A DNA stretch of 11,496 nucleotides, taken from assembly GCA_034722955.1 (NCBI GenBank), contig JAYEOM010000092.1, positions 1 through 11,496 of the forward strand, in the 5' to 3' direction. Shown piece after piece: positions 1 to 11,016 of this stretch (its first letter is position 1; every line of letters begins with the position of its first letter). The position numbers and the translations under genes were made by a program. Source of the stretch: Campylobacterota bacterium (lineage in GTDB: Bacteria > Campylobacterota > Campylobacteria > Campylobacterales > Sulfurovaceae). A model generated the notes under the pieces. It worked only from the letters and a program-made list of their open reading frames with translations, was not told where the DNA came from and made no database searches.

Positions 1-126
1 ATAAAAATAGTACAAGCATACAAAAAAGGATATTCACAGCATTTGATTGCTAAAGTATTAGGATTAAATCAAGCAACTGTACAGAGGATTATCAAGAGGA
101 CAAAGGATAGCATTAGCATTATCTGA
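1..126 (+). CDS. 3' end (partial, runs off window) of an HTH-tailed protein, probably a REP-associated/HUH (Y1) tyrosine transposase
   Basis: Manual frame-1 translation IKIVQAYKKGYSQHLIAKVLGLNQATVQRIIKRTKDSISII*, TGA at 124-126. GYSQHLIAKVLGLNQATVQRII is an HTH pattern. The stop lies in a TGACCCC motif (124-130) that I associate with ends of RAYT-like genes. The catalytic domain is not visible, so the family call is inference. Confidence 0.55.
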   Translation: MKIVQAYKKGYSQHLIAKVLGLNQATVQRIIKRTKDSISII

Positions 127-137
127 CCCCTTTAGCC

Positions 138-211
138 CAAAAATATCTGTCTATACTGCTCTTTGATGGTATGGAAAGCTTCCATTATCTCAAAACACCG
201 CTCTTCATCTT
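138..211 (-). pseudogene. 74-bp internal fragment of the sbcC/Rad50-type SMC ATPase 3' region (copy 1 of direct repeat)
   Basis: Minus-strand translation DEERCFEIMEAFHTIKEQYRQIFL. Manual alignment to 1723-1796 gives 68/74 identical. Confidence 0.85.
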
Positions 212-1305
212 CACTCATGATTAAACTCATACTTATCAATCTCTCTTCGTAATGGATGAGTATAGGCAATCAAATTTTCATGCATCATTCTTCCAACTAC
301 AATTGATGTTTTTATATCTAAAGAGTTAGCAAAGGTCTCAACACTTGCTTTGCTCTTACAGTTTCCACTCATTGTAAATACATCAAAATCTTTTTGCGGG
401 ATAAGTAAATCTCTTGCAAATTGATTTGCTTCTTCCTCTTGTTCTCGTAGTTCAGGCGTGTCATAACCGTTTTCTATAAATATCTCACGCTTTTTATGTA
501 GTAAAATATGCCCTATCTCATGGAAGAAGCTGAACCAAAACTTATCGGAACTTTTACCTCTTAATGACATCATCAAAACTGCTTTATCTTTATTGTTGAG
601 CCAAAAAGTAGCTCCTTGTGCTCCTGTATTTTTAAAATGAGGCATAAGCACAAATGCTACACCACAAGAGGCAAGTAACTCTTTACATGCAGCTATAGCA
701 CCATTTACATCTAAAAGCATACTCTTTTTTATTTTTGGTAGTAATTTTTTTAGCTTTGACTTGTCAAAGGCTTTAGTATCGATAGTATTTGCCTCTAATC
801 GTCCTGCTTGTATCCATGAAGCGATACTCTCATGAGTAATGTTTTTATGGCTAGTTACTCTAAATGCACTTTGATAAGCACCTACATGTTCTATACGGCT
901 AAGATTAGCGACAGAAAAGAAACTTCTCAACTCATCTACTTTTTTTATCTTATCTCTTGTTTTTTCTACAAAACCAAGTTTAGAAAGGTCAAGGTATGGA
1001 AATCTATCCAAGAGAGAAGTCTCCTCCTTCATCACTTTTAACTCTTCTTGTTTTGCTTTTACCATTTGGTATTCAGACTCTAAGCCTATCCAGATATGTG
1101 CAGGTACTTTTAAAACATCCTCAAGCTCTATCGCTGTTGCAGGAGTGATGCTTTTTTTACCTTTTATGATCTCGTTTATAGCCTGTGTTGGTCGTCCAAG
1201 TCTATTTGCAAGTTCTGCTTGACTCATACCAATCTCTTCAATGGTCTCTTCCAGAAGTTCGCCAGGGTGTATAGCTAAGTCTGATATATATGTATTAGTC
1301 TCCAT
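211..1305 (-). CDS. higA: HigA-family XRE HTH antitoxin fused to ImmA/IrrE-type Zn metallopeptidase (364 aa)
   Basis: N-terminal IHPGELL...MSQAELANRLGRPTQAINEIIKGKKSIT...A.ELE..L..PA..W..L (HigA/VapI HTH). C-terminal FHEIGH (HExxH) plus EEEANQFA. Start moved to ATG 1305 (GAGGAGG at 1318-1324), overlapping the toxin stop by 11 nt. Confidence 0.88.
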   Translation of the reverse strand: METNTYISDLAIHPGELLEETIEEIGMSQAELANRLGRPTQAINEIIKGKKSITPATAIELEDVLKVPAHIWIGLESEYQMVKAKQEELKVMKEETSLLDRFPYLDLSKLGFVEKTRDKIKKVDELRSFFSVANLSRIEHVGAYQSAFRVTSHKNITHESIASWIQAGRLEANTIDTKAFDKSKLKKLLPKIKKSMLLDVNGAIAACKELLASCGVAFVLMPHFKNTGAQGATFWLNNKDKAVLMMSLRGKSSDKFWFSFFHEIGHILLHKKREIFIENGYDTPELREQEEEANQFARDLLIPQKDFDVFTMSGNCKSKASVETFANSLDIKTSIVVGRMMHENLIAYTHPLRREIDKYEFNHE

Positions 1306-1597
1306 AGTGGTCACTGACCTCCTCAATTTTTGCGATGTCAAATGTCTCTCCATCGTTGGTAATGATTAAACGCCAATAGCCTGTAAGCTTTATGGCATAT
1401 TCACCTTTGCGGTTTCCTTTTAAGGGGTGAAATTTTAAAGAGGGGATTTTATATAAGTCTTCAAAGTTTTTGGCACTTTTTAAGATGCCAACTCTCATAT
1501 TGTATTTTTTTGCAACCTGAGAACCGTAGGCTTTCTCAGCCTCCTTATGGTTCTCATACTGTTTTTGGAGTTTTTTAGTTCTAAATTTTATTTCCAA
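1295..1597 (-). CDS. higB: HigB/RelE-family type II toxin (100 aa)
   Basis: MEIKFRTKKL...KFHPLKGNRKGEYAIKLTGYWRLII...EEVSDHYGD matches the HigB pattern (HxLKGxRKGxxSIxxxxxWRL). TTG start. Toxin-first order upstream of HigA. Confidence 0.87.
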   Translation of the reverse strand: MEIKFRTKKLQKQYENHKEAEKAYGSQVAKKYNMRVGILKSAKNFEDLYKIPSLKFHPLKGNRKGEYAIKLTGYWRLIITNDGETFDIAKIEEVSDHYGD

Positions 1598-1611
1598 GTT
1601 TTCTTCTTTTT

Positions 1612-1637
1612 ATTCACCCATTAGGTGAATTATATCA
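1612..1637 (-). promoter_or_regulatory. higBA promoter (extended -10) overlapped by a palindromic operator
   Basis: Minus strand TGATATAAT (-10 hexamer at 1629-1634). Perfect 7-bp inverted repeat ATTCACC-N5-GGTGAAT at 1612-1630 covers the expected transcription start. Confidence 0.7.
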
Positions 1638-1668
1638 TAACTTTTTAAATAATCTTTATCCTTTACCA

Positions 1669-1890
1669 TTACAACTCCACCACTCTCTCAAACATCTCCT
1701 TAATCTCACTCTTATGAGATATCAAAAATATCTGTCTATACTGCTCCTTGATAGTATGAAATGCTTCCATAATCTCAAAACGCCGCTCTTCATCTTGACT
1801 TCCAAAAACTTCATCAAATGCCAGGAAACCAACCCCACCGCTATCACTAAGTTCGCTCAAAGTCTTAGAAAAGCTATACGCAACACTAGG
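1669..1890 (-). pseudogene. sbcC: Orphan 3' end of an SbcC/Rad50-type SMC ATPase gene, with a 1-nt frameshift
   Basis: Reads LVLRIA/(1-nt deletion near 1871)/SKTLSELSDSGGVGFLAFDEVFGSQDEERRFEIMEAFHTIKEQYRQIFLISHKSEIKEMFERVVEL*. Contains Walker B/D-loop (AFDEVFGSQD) and H-loop (LISH). No 5' portion upstream in the window. Confidence 0.8.
1723..1796. repeat. Copy 2 of the 74-bp direct repeat (with 138-211) bracketing the TA operon
   Basis: caaaaatatctgtctatactgctc...ccgctcttcatctt occurs at both sites, with 6 mismatches and no indels. Confidence 0.92.
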
Positions 1891-1980
1891 TATAATTTTG
1901 AAGGAGTTAACAATAAGGTATTTGAGGATAGAGATTTGTTACTAGATGTAGCATAATTAGGTGGAATAAGGAAATTATTT

Positions 1981-2061
1981 TTAGTGGTCTTGACAAAGGG
2001 GTGCATTATACAGAAACTGTGTTGATAAAACAAGCAGCAGTGTTACAATATACTTAATCAT
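1981..2061 (-). pseudogene. Signal-peptide-like mini-ORF (26 aa), probable truncated exported-protein gene
   Basis: AAGGAGGAG RBS at 2066-2074, ATG at 2061, translation MIKYIVTLLLVLSTQFLYNAPLCQDH*. Basic n-region plus hydrophobic h-region, then an early stop. Confidence 0.5.
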
Positions 2062-2109
2062 CTTTCTCCTCCTTGATATAGTAGTTGAGTAATAATACAA
2101 TAAATGACC

Positions 2110-2316
2110 CTAAAAAGAGATCAGCCAAATGGTGCTGATGCACCAATAGAGTTGAAACAGAGATAAGACAAAACCACAATACAACAGAACACTCCACCAT
2201 ACTCCATGACTAGCCAACCACAAAAAGTACCAACTTATTGCAATAGCTATAAAAAATATGGCGATATTCAATTTTTCTGGTATTTTGCAGCTATCAAGAT
2301 CGTCACTATTTTTCAT
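2110..2316 (-). CDS. Small hydrophobic protein (68 aa), possibly an N-terminal remnant of a membrane fatty-acid desaturase
   Basis: MKNSDDLDSCKIPEKLNIAIFFIAIAISWYFLWLASHGVWWSVLL... has two hydrophobic stretches. IPxxLN...LWLASH..WW resembles desaturase N-termini from memory, but no His-boxes are present. Lies just downstream of the DUF1622 gene. Confidence 0.35.
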   Translation of the reverse strand: MKNSDDLDSCKIPEKLNIAIFFIAIAISWYFLWLASHGVWWSVLLYCGFVLSLFQLYWCISTIWLISF

Positions 2317-2344
2317 ACTGTATCCATCTATTGGCAGTTTCAAT

Positions 2345-2668
2345 CTATTGAAGTTCAGAGACTTCCTTGTTGAGAGAGTAGGTCAAAACAGTTCTTATCG
2401 CAACAATAGCACCCAATACGACAACCTCATCTATGGTGGGCTTAATGATAGTATTGATGATGTCAGCAGCGATTAAAAATTCTAATCCCAGTAGAAGATA
2501 GGAGCCTAAATATCGTCTTATCACTCCTATCTCCTTGAGTGTATCCTCCTCATTTGCTTTACGCAGGCTCAAGAGTATGAACTCTTTCAAGCTCGATATC
2601 ACACCCCATAAAATAATCAAAATACCTATAAACCCTATGCCTAGTGTTAAAAAATGTAATATTTGCAT
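2345..2668 (-). CDS. DUF1622 family membrane protein
   Basis: RRYLGSYLLLGLEFLIAADIINTIIKPT...LGAIVAIRTVLTYSLNKE is the DUF1622 signature. GGAGGAG RBS at 2676-2682 favours ATG 2668. Confidence 0.9.
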   Translation of the reverse strand: MQILHFLTLGIGFIGILIILWGVISSLKEFILLSLRKANEEDTLKEIGVIRRYLGSYLLLGLEFLIAADIINTIIKPTIDEVVVLGAIVAIRTVLTYSLNKEVSELQ

Positions 2669-2819
2669 CAAATAGCTCCTCCTGCAAAATAGTTATTGAA
2701 GAATATTATGGCACAATCAATATTAAACTTAGGGTTGAAAGGTTTGAGTTTTTAGCCTCACTATTTTCAGTAATCCTAATGCATAATGCCGGTGAATAAT
2801 CTCTCTTCTATTTATTACT

Positions 2820-2828
2820 TGCTATAAT
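2820..2828 (+). promoter_or_regulatory. Extended -10 promoter of the antiporter gene
   Basis: TGCTATAAT at 2820-2828, 8 nt before ATG 2837, with no Shine-Dalgarno in between. Confidence 0.6.
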
Positions 2829-2836
2829 ATACCATT

Positions 2837-4039
2837 ATGGAAATAGATAATTTTTTTCTTACACTATTTTTGATATTGATTCTTGCTAGAGTATTAGGAG
2901 AACTCTTTGCACGATATGGTATCCCATCTGTATTGGGGGAACTCTTTGCAGGTGTGCTTTTGGGGTCATCCGTATTTGGTATCGTTGAGCCTAATGAGAT
3001 ACTCAAAATACTTGCCGAAATAGGGATTATTTTGCTTCTGTTTGAAGTAGGATTAGAGACGGACTTTGAGCGACTCAAAGATGCTGGGGTCAAATCCTTT
3101 ATCGTTGCTATCGCAGGGGTTGTTTTCCCATTCTCTTTGGGGTTTATTGTCTCCTATTTTCTCTTTGATCTCTCTACAAATATCTCGCTGTTTATTGGTG
3201 GGACGATGACAGCTACAAGTATAGGTATCACGCTGAGAGTATTGAGAGATATTAGTATGGAGAAGACCAATATAGCCCAGATAGTCATCGGTGCAGCGGT
3301 TATTGATGATATTATTGGGATTATTTTACTGGTATTTATTTACGATTTTTCAACCACTGATAATATGAGCTACCAGCATACCATAGAGGTAGCTGGTATG
3401 ATATTTGCATTTCTCATTTTTGCACCTCTATTAGCCAAAATATTATCTTATTTTATCTTCAAATACCATGCTCAAAGCAGGCTGCCTGGCTATATGCCTA
3501 CGATTATTATCTCGTTGATTTTGTTTTTTGCCTATCTATCACACCATATTGGTGCTCCTGCAATTTTAGGTTCTTTTGTCGCAGGTGTTGCTCTTTCGCG
3601 ACGCTTCTTTTTGCCTTTTGGTTTGATGTTGCGTAAAAATAAAGATCTTATCCATGAAGTACAGTCAAGCATGGCTCCCATCATCCAAATTTTCACTCCT
3701 ATATTTTTTGTTATGGTCGGACTCTCGATGGATTTGAGTGTGATTGACTTTAGCTCCGCAACCTTTTGGATAATGAGTAGTGTATTTATCTTTTTAGGCT
3801 TCATCAGTAAGTTTATAGGAGCATTTTTTATCTTCCAGCACTCTTTGAGAAATAATGCGATGATAGGCATATCGATGATACCTAGAGGTGAAGTGGGACT
3901 TATCTTTGCTGAGATAGGACGAGTCAATGGTGTGTTACCAAATGATATCTATGCGATACTAATCTTTGTAATCATCATCACAACCGTTGTGCCACCGTTT
4001 TTATTGAAGAGATATTTTAAGTTTGAATGTGTAGGGTAG
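2837..4039 (+). CDS. CPA2-family cation:proton antiporter (NapA/GerN/Kef-type membrane domain)
   Basis: 400 aa, highly hydrophobic. Motifs LAEIGIILLLFEVGLETD, TATSIGIT, AAVIDDIIG, PIFFVMVG, MIPRGEVGLI. Confidence 0.93.
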   Translation: MEIDNFFLTLFLILILARVLGELFARYGIPSVLGELFAGVLLGSSVFGIVEPNEILKILAEIGIILLLFEVGLETDFERLKDAGVKSFIVAIAGVVFPFSLGFIVSYFLFDLSTNISLFIGGTMTATSIGITLRVLRDISMEKTNIAQIVIGAAVIDDIIGIILLVFIYDFSTTDNMSYQHTIEVAGMIFAFLIFAPLLAKILSYFIFKYHAQSRLPGYMPTIIISLILFFAYLSHHIGAPAILGSFVAGVALSRRFFLPFGLMLRKNKDLIHEVQSSMAPIIQIFTPIFFVMVGLSMDLSVIDFSSATFWIMSSVFIFLGFISKFIGAFFIFQHSLRNNAMIGISMIPRGEVGLIFAEIGRVNGVLPNDIYAILIFVIIITTVVPPFLLKRYFKFECVG

Positions 4040-4169
4040 AGAATCTAGTTAGAGTCTCAAGCTTTGATATCATATTGCAGTTTTGGCTAGTCCTGCAAAC
4101 GATTGCCTTGTCTATGAGGTACCTCTCGACATAAATCGATCATCCTTAAGGGATTGTGTCACAGTATTT

Positions 4170-4225
4170 GGATATAATGCGTCTCATTTTCTATATTTCT
4201 AGATGAAAAAATATCTGTAAAGGAG
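4170..4225 (+). promoter_or_regulatory. rpmI-rplT promoter (-10) and RBS
   Basis: GATATAAT (-10 at 4173-4178) followed by GCGTC. AAGGAG at 4220-4225, 7 nt before ATG 4233. Confidence 0.6.
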
Positions 4226-4232
4226 TAACCTA

Positions 4233-4424
4233 ATGCCAAAAATGAAGAGCGTAAAAGGCGCTGTGAAGCGTTTCAAAGTTAAAAAAAGCGGCAAGATCAA
4301 AAGAGGAACGGCTTATAGAAGTCACATCCTGACCAAAGTTGATGGTAAGCACCATAGACAAATGAGATCACCAAAGCATGTTGATGCTGCGGACGCGAAA
4401 AACATCAAAGAGATGATCAACTAA
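4233..4424 (+). CDS. rpmI: 50S ribosomal protein L35
   Basis: MPKMKSVKGAVKRFKVKKSGKIKRGTAYRSHILTK..., upstream of rplT. Confidence 0.97.
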   Translation: MPKMKSVKGAVKRFKVKKSGKIKRGTAYRSHILTKVDGKHHRQMRSPKHVDAADAKNIKEMIN

Positions 4425-4440
4425 TCATCTCGCCATCTAT

Positions 4441-4556
4441 TCCCCCAAAAGGGGCAAGTTCAAACAGAGATAATGTTTGACACCTAATATAAACCAGCTT
4501 CAGCAGTTGACCCACACGATTAGTCGTATTGCGACATGCGAAGTTCGGTACAGGGT
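4441..4556 (+). ncRNA. Putative structured cis-regulatory RNA (candidate L20 autoregulatory element) between rpmI and rplT
   Basis: Manual folding gives three helices: CCCC/GGGG (4442-4454), TCAAACA/TGTTTGA (4460-4480) and a long bulged stem 4493-4549. It ends just before the rplT RBS (AAGGA ~4558-4562). Function is inferred from position. Confidence 0.5.
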
Positions 4557-4567
4557 AAAGGAAAACC

Positions 4568-4924
4568 ATGAGAGTAAAAACAGGTGTAGTCAGAAGACGA
4601 CGACACAAAAAACTACTAAAACAAGCCAGAGGATTCTACAGCGGTAGAAGAAAACATTTTAGAAAAGCAAAAGAGCAGCTTGAGAGATCACTGGTATATG
4701 CCTACAGAGATAGAAGACAGAAAAAAAGAGACTTTAGAAAACTATGGATCATCAGGATCAATGCAGCAGCAAGGCTCAACGATATGAACTACTCAACATT
4801 TATGTATGGTCTCAAACTTGCCAATATAGAACTTGACAGAAAAATTTTAGCAGATATGGCTATGAATGCTCCTGAAAGTTTCACGAAAATAGCAGAGGCT
4901 TCTAAAGCAGCTATAGTAAAATAA
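4568..4924 (+). CDS. rplT: 50S ribosomal protein L20
   Basis: [27 protein letters not shown]...[25 protein letters not shown]...[10 protein letters not shown]. Confidence 0.98.
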
Positions 4925-4943
4925 TATTTATCTATCTATAATT

Positions 4944-4980: not shown

Positions 4981-5718
4981 CTATCCCCTTTGTGTTTCAC
5001 CACCATAACTTATGATACCATATTGAAGATTGCTTATCTGTTTGAATCCTAGTGATTTCATCGCATGTTGGACTTGGAAACTTCGACTTCCTGTATGACA
5101 GTAGACAACTATTGGAGTATGCTTCTTATCTGCAATATCTTCAACTTTTGCATAGAACTGTGAAGTGGGAACAAGGATATCGGTACCTACGATATGACCC
5201 ATCTGATACTCCATATACTCACGCACATCGACAAGCTCGAATGCTATCATGCCTAGCTCTCGTGCTTCGATCAATGCCTCTAGCTCATCTCCATCTAGTT
5301 GTTCTTGTTTTAGAAGTATCTCTGCTTGCTCATGGGTCAAGCCTTTGGAGTGCTGATGGACAACCTCTTCGATCTCATCTTTGATCCTTTGTGACTCTGC
5401 ATACTCAGAAGTACAGAAGATACCACAATGACAAAGCCCATCTTCGGGGATCTCCTTTTCCAGAGCTGGCTTGCAGGGGCATATACGGTTATCTGCCTCT
5501 CTCCTCTCCTCTTTTGTCTCTCCGATCACCATAAAACATGGGCAGAACCTCTTGCCATACATCAAGCGATTGCGTGCCAATCCCATAATCACACCCTCAT
5601 TGACCTCTTCATTGGGATTTTGTACAAGATTGAACTGTTTGTTAACTTTGTCTACAAAAACTTGTGTCTTATCCATCTCTGCTAAAAACTCAGGAGAGTT
5701 CATATCTATCTGTTGCAT
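4981..5718 (-). CDS. Ferredoxin-thioredoxin reductase catalytic (beta) domain fused to a C-terminal rhodanese domain
   Basis: N-half has the FTRc cysteine set CPC...CPC...CHC (YGKRFCPCF, ICPCK, GLCHCGIF). C-half has LVDVREYMEYQMGHI.G and VVYCHTGSRS...LGFKQISNLQYGI (rhodanese). Confidence 0.88.
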   Translation of the reverse strand: MQQIDMNSPEFLAEMDKTQVFVDKVNKQFNLVQNPNEEVNEGVIMGLARNRLMYGKRFCPCFMVIGETKEERREADNRICPCKPALEKEIPEDGLCHCGIFCTSEYAESQRIKDEIEEVVHQHSKGLTHEQAEILLKQEQLDGDELEALIEARELGMIAFELVDVREYMEYQMGHIVGTDILVPTSQFYAKVEDIADKKHTPIVVYCHTGSRSFQVQHAMKSLGFKQISNLQYGIISYGGETQRG

Positions 5719-9306: not shown

Positions 9307-11016
9307 CTACTCTATATATAGATATCGTTTGATCTTTTTTGTTGGTGTTTTGACAAATGCTTCCCTCTGCTCTATCACTTTGCGGATACGAGAGAAGGAG
9401 GAGACTCTACTGTTAACCTCTATGCGAATCTCTTCTAGGAGACTCTCTATCTTATGATGCATTTTGGTCTCTGACTGCTCTTTGATACCCAGAATCTCAT
9501 CTAATTTATCATAATCAAGATTGATACGAGCAGTGAGTGTACCTTTGTCATCATAGACGAGAGAGTCTGCTACTATTGTATGGACATTGATGAGTGCTTC
9601 GATCTGCTCCGGATAGATATTTTCTCCACTTGAACCGATGATGATATTTTTGGCACGACCACTCATAAAGAAGTAGTCGTCCTCATCAAAATATCCGATA
9701 TCTTCTGTATTGAACCAGCCATCCTCATCTATCACCTCTGATGTCTTTTCAGGATCCTTATAGTATCCCATCATAACATTGGGGCCTTGTGCCCATAGTG
9801 TACCGACACCCTTATCGTCTTGATCACGAAGTTGAAGCTTCACACCGGGAAGAGCTGGCCCGATAGCTCTATATTTGGTGATAGTAGGATTGGTTCCCGC
9901 TAAGATAGGTGCTGTCTCTGTCAGGCCATAACCGATACAGTATGGAAATTTGGCTTCACGCAAAAACTTCTCAACGATAGGAGAGATACCTGCACCGCCT
10001 ACACCAAAGAAACGGATTTTGCCTCCGAAAGTCTCTATGAGTTTTTTGCCGGCAATTTCATGAAGTTTTTTACGAACAAATGGGATCTTGTAGAGAGTTC
10101 TAATCAAAAAGTTTTTTTGAAAATTTGGCATTACTCTGTTTTTGTAAATCTTCTCAATGACCAGAGGTACACTGAGTATAAAGTCAGGTTTTACTGTCGC
10201 CATAGCTCTTATCAGCACAGTTGGTGTAGGTGGTTTTTGTATATAGTGGATGGAGGCACCATTGAGAATAGGGATGATCATACCAACTGTACACTCATAA
10301 GTATGGGCTAGCGGCAGGATGGACAGAAATCGATCTTTGGGAAATATATCAACTAACTTTTGTGCTGCTGTAGCATCAAATGTTAGATTTATGTGACTGA
10401 GCATCACGCCTTTGGAACCTCCTGTTGTCCCTGAGGTATAGATGATAGCAGCTAAGTCATCCTCATCTATCACAACTTCATACTTCTCAGGGGATTCTCT
10501 GCCTAACCTCTCCATAGCTTTCGAGAGCTGTTCACCTCCTTTTTGTAATACCTTATCTATAGTTGATGGCACAGAGAGTTTCTTGAGTACTTGGAGTCTG
10601 TCTGCTATCACTAGTAGATTGAGTGTAGGGGGCTGTATCTCATCTAGCATAGTCTCAAAAAGCTTCTGGGAGACAAAAGCTGCTTTACACTCTGCGTGGT
10701 TAGCGATATGGAGTGCTTCTGAGGTGTGAAAGTCAGGCAAGATAGGCACTATTACTGCGCCCATAGTAGTCACTGCGAAATATATAGCAGCCCAGTTGGG
10801 CATATTTTCACTATAGAGTGCAACTTTATCACCTTTTCTGATACCATATTGGTAGAGTATCTCTTGGATCATTCCAACTTTTACAGCAAACTCTTCATAA
10901 GTTATCTCATCACCATCTACAAACTGTACAACAGGACGATCTGCATAAGTCTCTATACTATAGTCAAGTAGTGCTTTTAGTGTAAGTGTTGGCAGAGTTA
11001 TAAAGGGTTTACTCAT
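9307..11016 (-). CDS. Long-chain fatty acid-CoA ligase (AMP-binding, FadD-like)
   Basis: YTSGTTGGSKG P-loop, LPLAH, GYGLTET, GPNVMMGYYK, GRAKNIIIGSSGENIYPEQIE, KTPTKKIKR. AAGGAG RBS at 11025-11030. Confidence 0.92.
   Translation of the reverse strand: MSKPFITLPTLTLKALLDYSIETYADRPVVQFVDGDEITYEEFAVKVGMIQEILYQYGIRKGDKVALYSENMPNWAAIYFAVTTMGAVIVPILPDFHTSEALHIANHAECKAAFVSQKLFETMLDEIQPPTLNLLVIADRLQVLKKLSVPSTIDKVLQKGGEQLSKAMERLGRESPEKYEVVIDEDDLAAIIYTSGTTGGSKGVMLSHINLTFDATAAQKLVDIFPKDRFLSILPLAHTYECTVGMIIPILNGASIHYIQKPPTPTVLIRAMATVKPDFILSVPLVIEKIYKNRVMPNFQKNFLIRTLYKIPFVRKKLHEIAGKKLIETFGGKIRFFGVGGAGISPIVEKFLREAKFPYCIGYGLTETAPILAGTNPTITKYRAIGPALPGVKLQLRDQDDKGVGTLWAQGPNVMMGYYKDPEKTSEVIDEDGWFNTEDIGYFDEDDYFFMSGRAKNIIIGSSGENIYPEQIEALINVHTIVADSLVYDDKGTLTARINLDYDKLDEILGIKEQSETKMHHKIESLLEEIRIEVNSRVSSFSRIRKVIEQREAFVKTPTKKIKRYLYIE

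Follow-up and report, generated by a model that had tools for sequence, protein, structure and literature searches.

The window analyzed here (11,496 nucleotides, nt) corresponds to the entire contig C92 in a 2.51-Mb metagenome bin of a Campylobacterota bacterium (Sulfurovaceae), which is made of 140 contigs and is 99.97% complete. Close to its left end, a complete higBA toxin-antitoxin (TA) operon lies between two truncated 3' ends of sbcC, hereafter tail A (138..215) and tail B (1669..1890), and the whole arrangement (tail B, cassette promoter, higB, higA and tail A) is read from the minus strand. The tails share a direct repeat of 78 nt (138-215 and 1723-1800), with 71 of 78 positions identical, a spacing of 1585 and a longest exact common run of 24 nt inside this 91% identical block. 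When either copy was searched with blastn against the 2.51-Mb genome, the other was the sole match (E 1.6e-25). The direct repeat, the minus-strand reading and the profile matches thus confirm what a first-pass annotation of this DNA had proposed, i.e. a higBA operon between two same-orientation pieces of an SbcC C-terminus; the 74-bp repeat that it described is real, but it extends over 78 nt (138-215).

Tail B is a 73-codon stump that covers residues ~724/728-796 plus the stop codon, with no gene body upstream, and contains Walker B, D-loop and H-loop. Its protein is 91-94% identical to the last 68-73 residues of the full SbcC of relatives (796 amino acids, aa; SbcD-adjacent), and matches TIGR00618 and PF13558 weakly. 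Tail A, an orphan piece of the same gene, covers residues 754-779 (SEDEERCFEIMEAFHTIKEQYRQIFL), and its final 17 codons are missing. An identity of 91-94% at the C-terminus shows that the sequence comes from sbcC, and not that it is a working gene: a complete SbcC would be an SMC-like ATPase of ~790-1050 aa with Walker A, coiled coil and Walker B/H-loop, encoded beside sbcD, and nothing of this kind is present. A tblastn search with three full SbcC and one SbcD found no intact sbcC or sbcD in the genome, only the two tails, and neither sbcC nor a tail was found in 13 same-genus genomes; the idea that an intact sbcC serves as the anchor here has therefore to be abandoned.

Tails A and B differ by seven mismatches, five of which are synonymous, while synonymous changes would be expected to make up 17% of random substitutions and 32% of transitions in this stretch (P 0.002 to 0.04 if a local duplicate had drifted neutrally). 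Among primary tails, tail B is the best match of tail A (91%), and the distance of tail A to tails of another genus (L048, 6 mismatches) is comparable with that to tail B (7). Because five of the seven differences are synonymous, the comparison suggests that the two tails come from two different sbcC alleles, which had diverged as functional genes, rather than from one local duplication. At the upstream break of tail B lies an intergenic repeat of ~120 nt (1890..2010) without an Rfam match. It recurs between unrelated genes on contigs C104 and C56 (75-77%) and, with identities of up to 95%, in genomes of the same genus and beyond; every alignment ends sharply at 2010.

The cassette between the tails consists of a higB-like gene (1295..1597, minus strand) for a RelE-fold toxin of 100 aa with a TTG start (PF05015, 2.6e-09), and of a higA-like gene (211..1308, minus strand) for an antitoxin/repressor fused to an ImmA/IrrE (M78, HEIGH) peptidase domain (TIGR02607, 5e-18; HTH_3; Peptidase_M78), for which an upstream ATG at 1353 is an alternative possible start. 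PF05015 and TIGR02607 are above their cut-offs, and higB precedes higA with an overlap of 14 nt, i.e. the arrangement of a type II higBA operon, in which a gene for a RelE-fold HigB lies upstream of and overlaps that of a HigA with a helix-turn-helix (HTH) domain. The promoter region, as read from the letters, spans 70 nt (1598..1668, minus strand), and within it a perfect inverted repeat TTCACC-N5-GGTGAA (1613-1629) overlaps a TATAAT (1634-1629, minus strand); this inverted repeat, which is kept in L040, is likely the HigA operator. Among 400 other genomes of the order, 6 contain homologues of higA (56-73% identity), always beside higB, and the higB partners that adjoin every full homologue are 65-79% identical. 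Nucleotide homology of the cassette to L040 spans 221-1650 of the window, and blastn found no second higBA copy in the genome itself. A search for flanking direct repeats at the cassette in five other genomes gave only a 29-nt pair of 79% identity (L040), which on inspection did not seem significant. HigA also matches the PADLOC model PD-Lambda-2_B (1.8e-39). As in higBA operons with an XRE-M78 antitoxin and in PD-Lambda-2_B, HigB lies upstream of a HigA-type HTH protein with a likely palindromic promoter operator and an M78 HEIGH domain; of the PADLOC system, only the B component is matched in the window, and TA activity of the cassette is predicted from its sequence.

The junction of higA with tail A is chimeric. 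The tail homology extends to 215, and the higA stop codon (211-213) plus two bases of the last sense codon are therefore supplied by the tail piece, read in another frame; the downstream piece had earlier been placed from the last base of that stop codon, a limit that this extension corrects. HigA here ends in NHE-stop, whereas its closest homologue ends in K-stop right after the same EF. The TA cassette is likely the only functional part of the window, which taken alone would be a modest finding.

On its other side, tail A is cut by a mobile element. The contig begins inside a Y1/HUH (IS200-like or RAYT-like) transposase gene, of which the window holds only the HTH end (1..129, plus strand; 41 codons and stop, C-terminal HTH with HTH_28/HTH_23 matches). 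The conserved end motif of the element (GCATTAGCATTATCTGACCCCT plus a few bases; 104..137, plus strand), which recurs at multiple sites, abuts and truncates tail A. The HUH transposase had been taken for cassette cargo, but its role here is the truncation of tail A at 137; the reported lack of an integrase holds for tyrosine and serine integrases, but the 3' end of a Y1/HUH transposase is present at 1-129. The transposase gene is multi-copy, with further copies on C120, C112, C104, C130, C40, C108 and C111, and Y1_Tnp (PF01797) is matched by the C130 copy (1.1e-13), where it is contiguous with HTH_23, and by the C104 piece (2.7e-18). The C130 copy, the one full copy examined, has no end motif. 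This motif occurs at 22 sites in 17 of the 140 contigs, 18 of them at most 400 nt from a contig end, and is found at the 3' end of the transposase gene, ahead of gene starts in reverse orientation, or as inverted doublets (C118, C41 and C13). For a RAYT, a single gene between inverted REP sequences, themselves abundant as REPINs, would be expected; the positions and doublets of the motif recall this, but the multi-copy gene, the 22 sites and the C130 copy do not. Four times in this genome the element end abuts the 3' part of a convergent gene: sbcC tail A (C92), a DUF2779 tail (C113), a reverse transcriptase gene (C112:180-1080, cut at its 3' end) and a Cas2-like gene adjoining a GNAT acetyltransferase gene (C104:1-1400, L151, also cut at its 3' end). 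Contig C113 opens (1-400, L150) with the last ~40 codons of a DUF2779 gene, joined to the same end motif and to a 41-codon Y1 N-terminal fragment, and no DUF2779 body was found in the rest of the genome. Besides the sbcC tails, the genome here has a second orphan tail of a Sulfurovum-type island in this fragment; C113 could not be linked to C92.

Concerning the assembly, we compared the window with independent Logan contigs, which stem from four runs of a single brine-metagenome study. These bridge 98-948 (1 mismatch), 1286-1698 (0), 1690-1836 and 1814-1975 (0), so that the window junctions cannot be put down to an artefact of the present assembly alone; the earlier caution that the repeat might not be bridged in reads is answered for the junctions of both tails. 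Other contigs share tail B and diverge exactly at its stop codon (1669) or at 1675 into different sequences, and some of those matching 1690-1891 continue beyond 1891 into FSGGEVDLA, i.e. into real sbcC sequence. A second form, present in two runs at depths of 19.5 and ~8, joins higA at 223 to sbcC from 1709 to the stop (the last ~13-17 codons), through 28 nt that give a native-looking EFG-stop end of HigA. It is either a second arrangement of cargo followed by a partial tail, or a tandem, or a circle. The first-pass annotation had also predicted a repeat-to-repeat excision joint of 1585 bp (138-215 with 1723-1800). This was not seen among the Logan contigs, which drop rare forms and so carry little weight on this point. 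A joint of 182 to 1788 with 20 letters between them was also considered, and is best read as a third sbcC allele that aligns to both tails.

The surroundings of the cassette offer few other landmarks. Base composition has no sharp edge around it, Rfam and tRNA scans of 1-4300 returned nothing relevant, and a promoter and terminator scan did no better than on shuffled sequence. The only DNA-level conserved stretch adjoining the region in same-genus genomes is rpmI-rplT (4165-4933), which marks the leftmost 4 kb of the window as variable between strains.

In the wider Sulfurovaceae, 32 of 250 genomes carry the tail, 21 of them in frames of at least 650 aa and 11 as fragments only. The Sulfurovum-type locus begins with SpoU (with FabI where seen), followed by one of two forms, DUF2130 or (Tex/TA)-sbcD-sbcC, then by the sbcC tail, variable cargo and, in many cases, DUF2779. 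The cargo comprises zeta-toxin TA, ParE/Phd, RES, NACHT, NERD, Ppl and ABC-3C. Gene tails are repeated in several of these loci: two sbcC pieces stand in tandem in L053, the full DUF2130 gene and its last 93 codons surround a hydrolase gene in L052, four same-strand DUF2779 tail pieces lie 0.6-1.5 kb apart between small cassettes in L047, and further DUF2779 tail pieces are found in L049, L050, L056 and L057. Almost all partial tails of the three genes extend to the C-terminus from differing starts, as would be expected of insertions at the gene end. A start at residues 761-766, common to six genomes (G074, G086, G156, G538, G539 and G598), was considered as a site-specific core. However, in all six it lies directly after DUF2130, and G538, G539 and G598, as well as G164 with a different junction, have the same FabI/SpoU upstream as sbcCD in other Sulfurovum genomes, so that common descent suffices.

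DUF2130 and sbcD-sbcC share the slot after SpoU (L016-L019 and L052-L054 versus L013, L020 and L021) and are apparently mutually exclusive, as five out of five full-sbcCD genomes are without DUF2130. By eye, DUF2130 has a zinc ribbon, a coiled coil and a nuclease-like C-terminus, and it may be a functional replacement of sbcCD; in genome G585 sbcCD is decaying through frameshifts. The complete Sulfurovum-type genome of L061 has no DUF2130 gene, and two DUF2130 C-terminal fragments follow DUF2779 directly in it (9709-9789 and 11536-11652). For DUF2779 itself, the published prediction (PMC3985635) is that of a 3'-5' exonuclease of RNase H-like type that also has a PD-(D/E)XK part. Its tail fragments of ~80 nt start within ~15 nt of each other in L047 (2200-5600), L049 (6200-8400) and L050 (4400-7250), and separate ParE/Phd, HTH_3 and DUF2721 cassettes; these arrays are on four contigs of one bin with 6% contamination, which probably holds several strains.

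We then consider the whole order Campylobacterales, scanned with one genome per species. This gave 80 sbcC-tail loci, 64 of them with the tail at the standard place and 58 with at least 1.2 kb downstream. The first open reading frame (ORF) downstream of sbcC falls into 41 clusters among these 58 loci, 35 of which are singletons. Variable TA and defence cargo at the sbcC 3' end is thus supported, mostly outside the genome for which it had been claimed. The 58 loci have the differing cargo of a defence hotspot flanked by a core gene, an assignment based on the number of clusters and on PADLOC and Pfam defence matches.

At seven of the 58 loci, a full sbcC is followed by 0.7-1.1 kb of cargo and then by one or two extra same-strand partial tails; together with L053 in Sulfurovaceae, these are the multiple tail copies downstream of sbcC that had been predicted. 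The seven belong to Sulfurimonas, Sulfuricurvum and allied bins, sbcC is intact in all of them, and L114 has the arrangement of cargo and partial tail twice. Each partial tail reaches residue 796 (the one in L104 is split by a frameshift), with starts located by tblastn at residues 693, 734-751, 763 and 772. When all partial tails are considered, starts are at residues 673, 693, 724, 728, 732, 741-755, 761-766, 772, 776 and ~780, a range that does not fit the single recurring junction also expected. The cargo before a partial tail is an ORF6N or RhuM/Bro-N protein (PADLOC PDC-S05), and that after it is Old, ABC-3C/LmuA, an AriA/PtuA-like ATPase, a DnaG-like protein, KilA-N or SIR2-like; PADLOC matches in the cargo are PDC-S05, Old, LmuA/ABC-3C, AriA/PtuA-like and Ppl.

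Two observations from these loci bear on the movement of cargo and tails. PDC-S05 cargo is 86-91% identical over ~890 nt between loci whose sbcC bodies are ~68-70% identical or barely alignable; this cassette has therefore moved between genera to the same address. Moreover, the partial tail of L101 (307 nt) shares 68% identity with the primary tail of its locus and 82% with the tails of other genomes, and is clearly foreign there. For five out of eight partial tails, the best match is the tail of another genome.

Some partial tails remain open as ORFs of 46-50 codons that overlap the stop codon of the preceding cargo (L102 5163-5315, L111 5130-5282, L114 5136-5288 and L146 5210-5350), even in the strongly diverged L111 (44% aa identity), which could be due to chance, recency or selection on a small ORF. 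In L114, the duplicated block (4207-4235 and 5288-5316) passes the sbcC stop codon into the first six codons (MNEIVT) of the next gene, and the RhuM gene therefore has a borrowed N-terminus.

From these observations, we consider it somewhat more probable than its negation that positions 138-1890 are the eroded remnant of a cargo array of a type that forms at the sbcC 3' end in Campylobacterales. Unit 1 would be tail B with the self-contained higB/higA-M78 cassette, which has its own promoter and operator. Unit 2 would be tail A, whose own end and cargo would have been removed when the Y1/HUH element landed at 137; tail A would thus once have led another cargo. No sbcC body is left, and its break is at 1890, beside the 120-nt repeat. 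In terms of mechanism, incoming DNA made of an sbcC tail plus cargo, from other strains or genera, might recombine through the conserved tail as a homologous anchor, while its other end would join illegitimately; alternatively, a circularised fragment of tail plus cargo might integrate Campbell-fashion. The product would have the order full tail, new cargo, partial tail, old cargo, and no dedicated integrase would be needed.

Several features argue for such insertion at a gene end rather than at a fixed core: the 3' limit of the tails is fixed and their 5' limit variable, none of the Pfam matches for ORFs in the window or around 37 related loci is to an integrase family, and junctions look illegitimate, i.e. 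the chimeric end of higA and the ATGG microhomology at the second partial-tail junction (p2) of L114. The last ~50-100 codons of sbcC are also its most conserved part (0.78-0.92 aa identity among distant pairs), and the tail is therefore the best homologous anchor in the gene, whereas the site directly behind the stop codon is hypervariable. Homology-anchored insertion fits these data better than an integron-like site-specific system. Processes of this kind have been described, as integration of foreign DNA through one homologous anchor and an illegitimate join, i.e. homology-facilitated illegitimate recombination (PMC3240628), and as alternative pairing during transformation that creates repeat-bordered tandem duplications (PMC3784515). 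As outlined in these two sources, they are laboratory observations in other bacteria, and gene-tail arrays are not among the products shown there.

A number of observations weigh against this interpretation. Recombination events were in no case observed directly, and the synonymous excess between tails A and B is modest and rests on only seven differences. The higBA homologues of the six other genomes have no sbcC tail within ~1.5 kb. Local duplication is what L114 resembles: its extra tails are most similar to the tail of their own locus (96% and 93%), and the duplicated block reaches the opening codons of the gene that follows. Concerning exchange of the tails themselves, we compared codons at identical residues in 60 aligned sbcC genes (1096 pairs with <55% aa identity). 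The idea that tails are homogenised by transfer was rejected, with same-codon fractions in the tail of 0.41, 0.38 and 0.52 versus 0.36-0.59 elsewhere in the gene; tail conservation is explained by protein constraint alone, with no sign of routine tail exchange. Among the Logan contigs listed, none spans 1975-2078, and the genome is a metagenome bin in 140 contigs. Finally, the first-pass annotation had named a single tail followed by constant genes in relatives as the mark of a one-off duplication. The 12 full-length Sulfurovaceae and close loci first examined do have one tail each within ~6 kb, but extra tails occur at seven of the 58 surveyed loci and the cargo is variable.

The alternative that survives best is a one-off local tandem duplication of the block from tail to higA, whose second copy would have been lost via the transposase element, with no general hotspot. 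Tail B being the best primary-tail match of tail A (91%), the L114 evidence that local duplication of tail blocks does happen, and the capacity of transformation for making tandem duplications (PMC3784515, as outlined there) would all be in keeping with it. We nevertheless regard it as unlikely, given that five of the seven tail differences are synonymous, that tail A is equally near the tail of another genus (L048, six mismatches) as tail B (seven), that no second higBA copy exists in the genome, and that the same architecture recurs in unrelated genomes.

Quite unlikely, in our estimate, is site-specific accretion, in which a tyrosine, serine or HUH recombinase encoded elsewhere would recognise a core in the sbcC tail and insert circular cassettes of tail plus cargo, stacked like integron cassettes or the tandem islands of tRNA genes. 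The spacing of some arrays is suggestive of it, as cargo starts 0-33 nt after the tail stop and ends at the first codons of the next tail in L111, L114 and L146. Several starts are at residues ~745-755 (tail A of the window, L102, L104, L111, L114 and L146), but starts as a whole spread over residues 673 to ~780, and the one near 750 in L102, L111 and L114 follows PDC-S05 genes with a homologous C-terminal half, and may be inherited. The DUF2779 fragments that start within ~15 nt of each other in one array, and the back-joint of 1709 to 223 in two runs, which could be a circle or a tandem, would also be in its favor. However, Pfam scans of the flanks revealed no integrase family, the junction of higA with tail A destroys the native higA end and looks illegitimate, and the p2 junction of L114 lies on an ATGG microhomology.

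It is very improbable that the Y1/HUH element built the structure by one-ended or rolling-circle capture in an ISCR-like manner. Its end does abut the 3' parts of convergent genes four times in this genome, and a Y1_Tnp gene stands at the far end of the G166 island; but no such element lies within 4 kb of the multi-tail loci of Sulfurimonadaceae, a search of the present genome with the G166 Y1 protein gave no match at E 1e-5, and the element truncates tail A instead of bounding a complete unit. An assembly or binning artefact, for which one could invoke the 140-contig metagenome bin, the repeats at both region ends, and a summed depth over tail B of ~3x that of the flanks (since other populations carry similar tails), is barely credible given that the two copies differ at seven of 78 positions with a longest exact common run of 24 nt, that contigs bridge the end motif, tail A and higA (98-948), higB and tail B (1286-1698), and tail B and the 120-nt repeat (1814-1975), and that depth in run X1 is similar on both sides (24-27 versus 30-31).

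The favored reading, a cargo array formed by homology at a gene end, has likenesses with several known systems. Downstream of rhs, cdiA and mafB, orphan toxin/immunity modules are displaced units that keep a conserved piece, the newest lying beside the main gene. There too a conserved piece in each unit can serve as a recombination handle, but the variable part is the C-terminal toxin domain of the gene itself, whereas at sbcC it consists of unrelated genes after the stop codon. Integrase-driven insertion in the 3' ends of tRNA or protein genes duplicates the gene end and displaces one copy, and its repetition gives arrays. The likeness lies in the doubled target end, of which the gene keeps one copy and the other stands behind the insert; the sbcC case differs by having no integrase found, no fixed core and one junction inside higA. 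Nor do the two copies form an identical att core around an integrase with a restored target, as their longest exact run is 24 nt.

Integron arrays also hold small TA or mostly promoter-dependent cassettes in one orientation with a recurring element between them. However, neither IntI nor attI stands beside the array, no integrase is among the Pfam matches, and the recurring element is a coding fragment of variable length rather than an attC hairpin. Of the integron-like array anchored on sbcC that had been put forward, what exists in the order is a cargo hotspot marked by tails; its integron-like nature is not demonstrated. Defence-island hotspots flanked by core genes are described in E. coli and Pseudomonas aeruginosa (PMC10121019, PMC10250203). 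Compared by their descriptions in these sources, they are alike in that a conserved chromosomal gene borders a slot with differing defence or TA systems, and different in that sbcC leaves truncated copies of its 3' end between the cargo and that the border gene is often lost. We found no description in the literature of sbcC as an insertion anchor or of orphan sbcC tails, as judged mostly by titles and abstract openings.

A further, tentative proposal, which we rather doubt at present, is that across Campylobacterales the tails of sbcC, and in Sulfurovum also those of DUF2779 and DUF2130, are portable recombination handles, with defence and TA cassettes that travel between genera with a tail and are stacked or swapped at the stop codon by natural transformation and RecA. 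If so, this would be an integrase-free, integron-like defence array anchored on a DNA-repair gene that can be lost, and a simple way, without an integrase, for competent bacteria to gather and exchange defence and addiction modules at a fixed address. Orphan gene tails would then be footprints that date successive acquisitions. The replacement or decay of sbcCD at a locus crowded with anti-phage systems also raises the question of a link between loss of this nuclease and gain of defence. For annotation, ORFs of 40-110 aa labelled 'SbcC-like' beside defence genes in Campylobacterota should be taken as relics, not genes.

Finally, two features were observed outside the region discussed above. 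A repeat of ~40 nt at 4085-4125, between an antiporter gene and rpmI, has more than 20 copies in the genome with 88-100% identity, and copies also in one same-genus genome; it may be a REP-like element, distinct from the end motif of the transposase. At the right contig end (11271-11450), two tRNA-Glu(TTC) genes are present in tandem.

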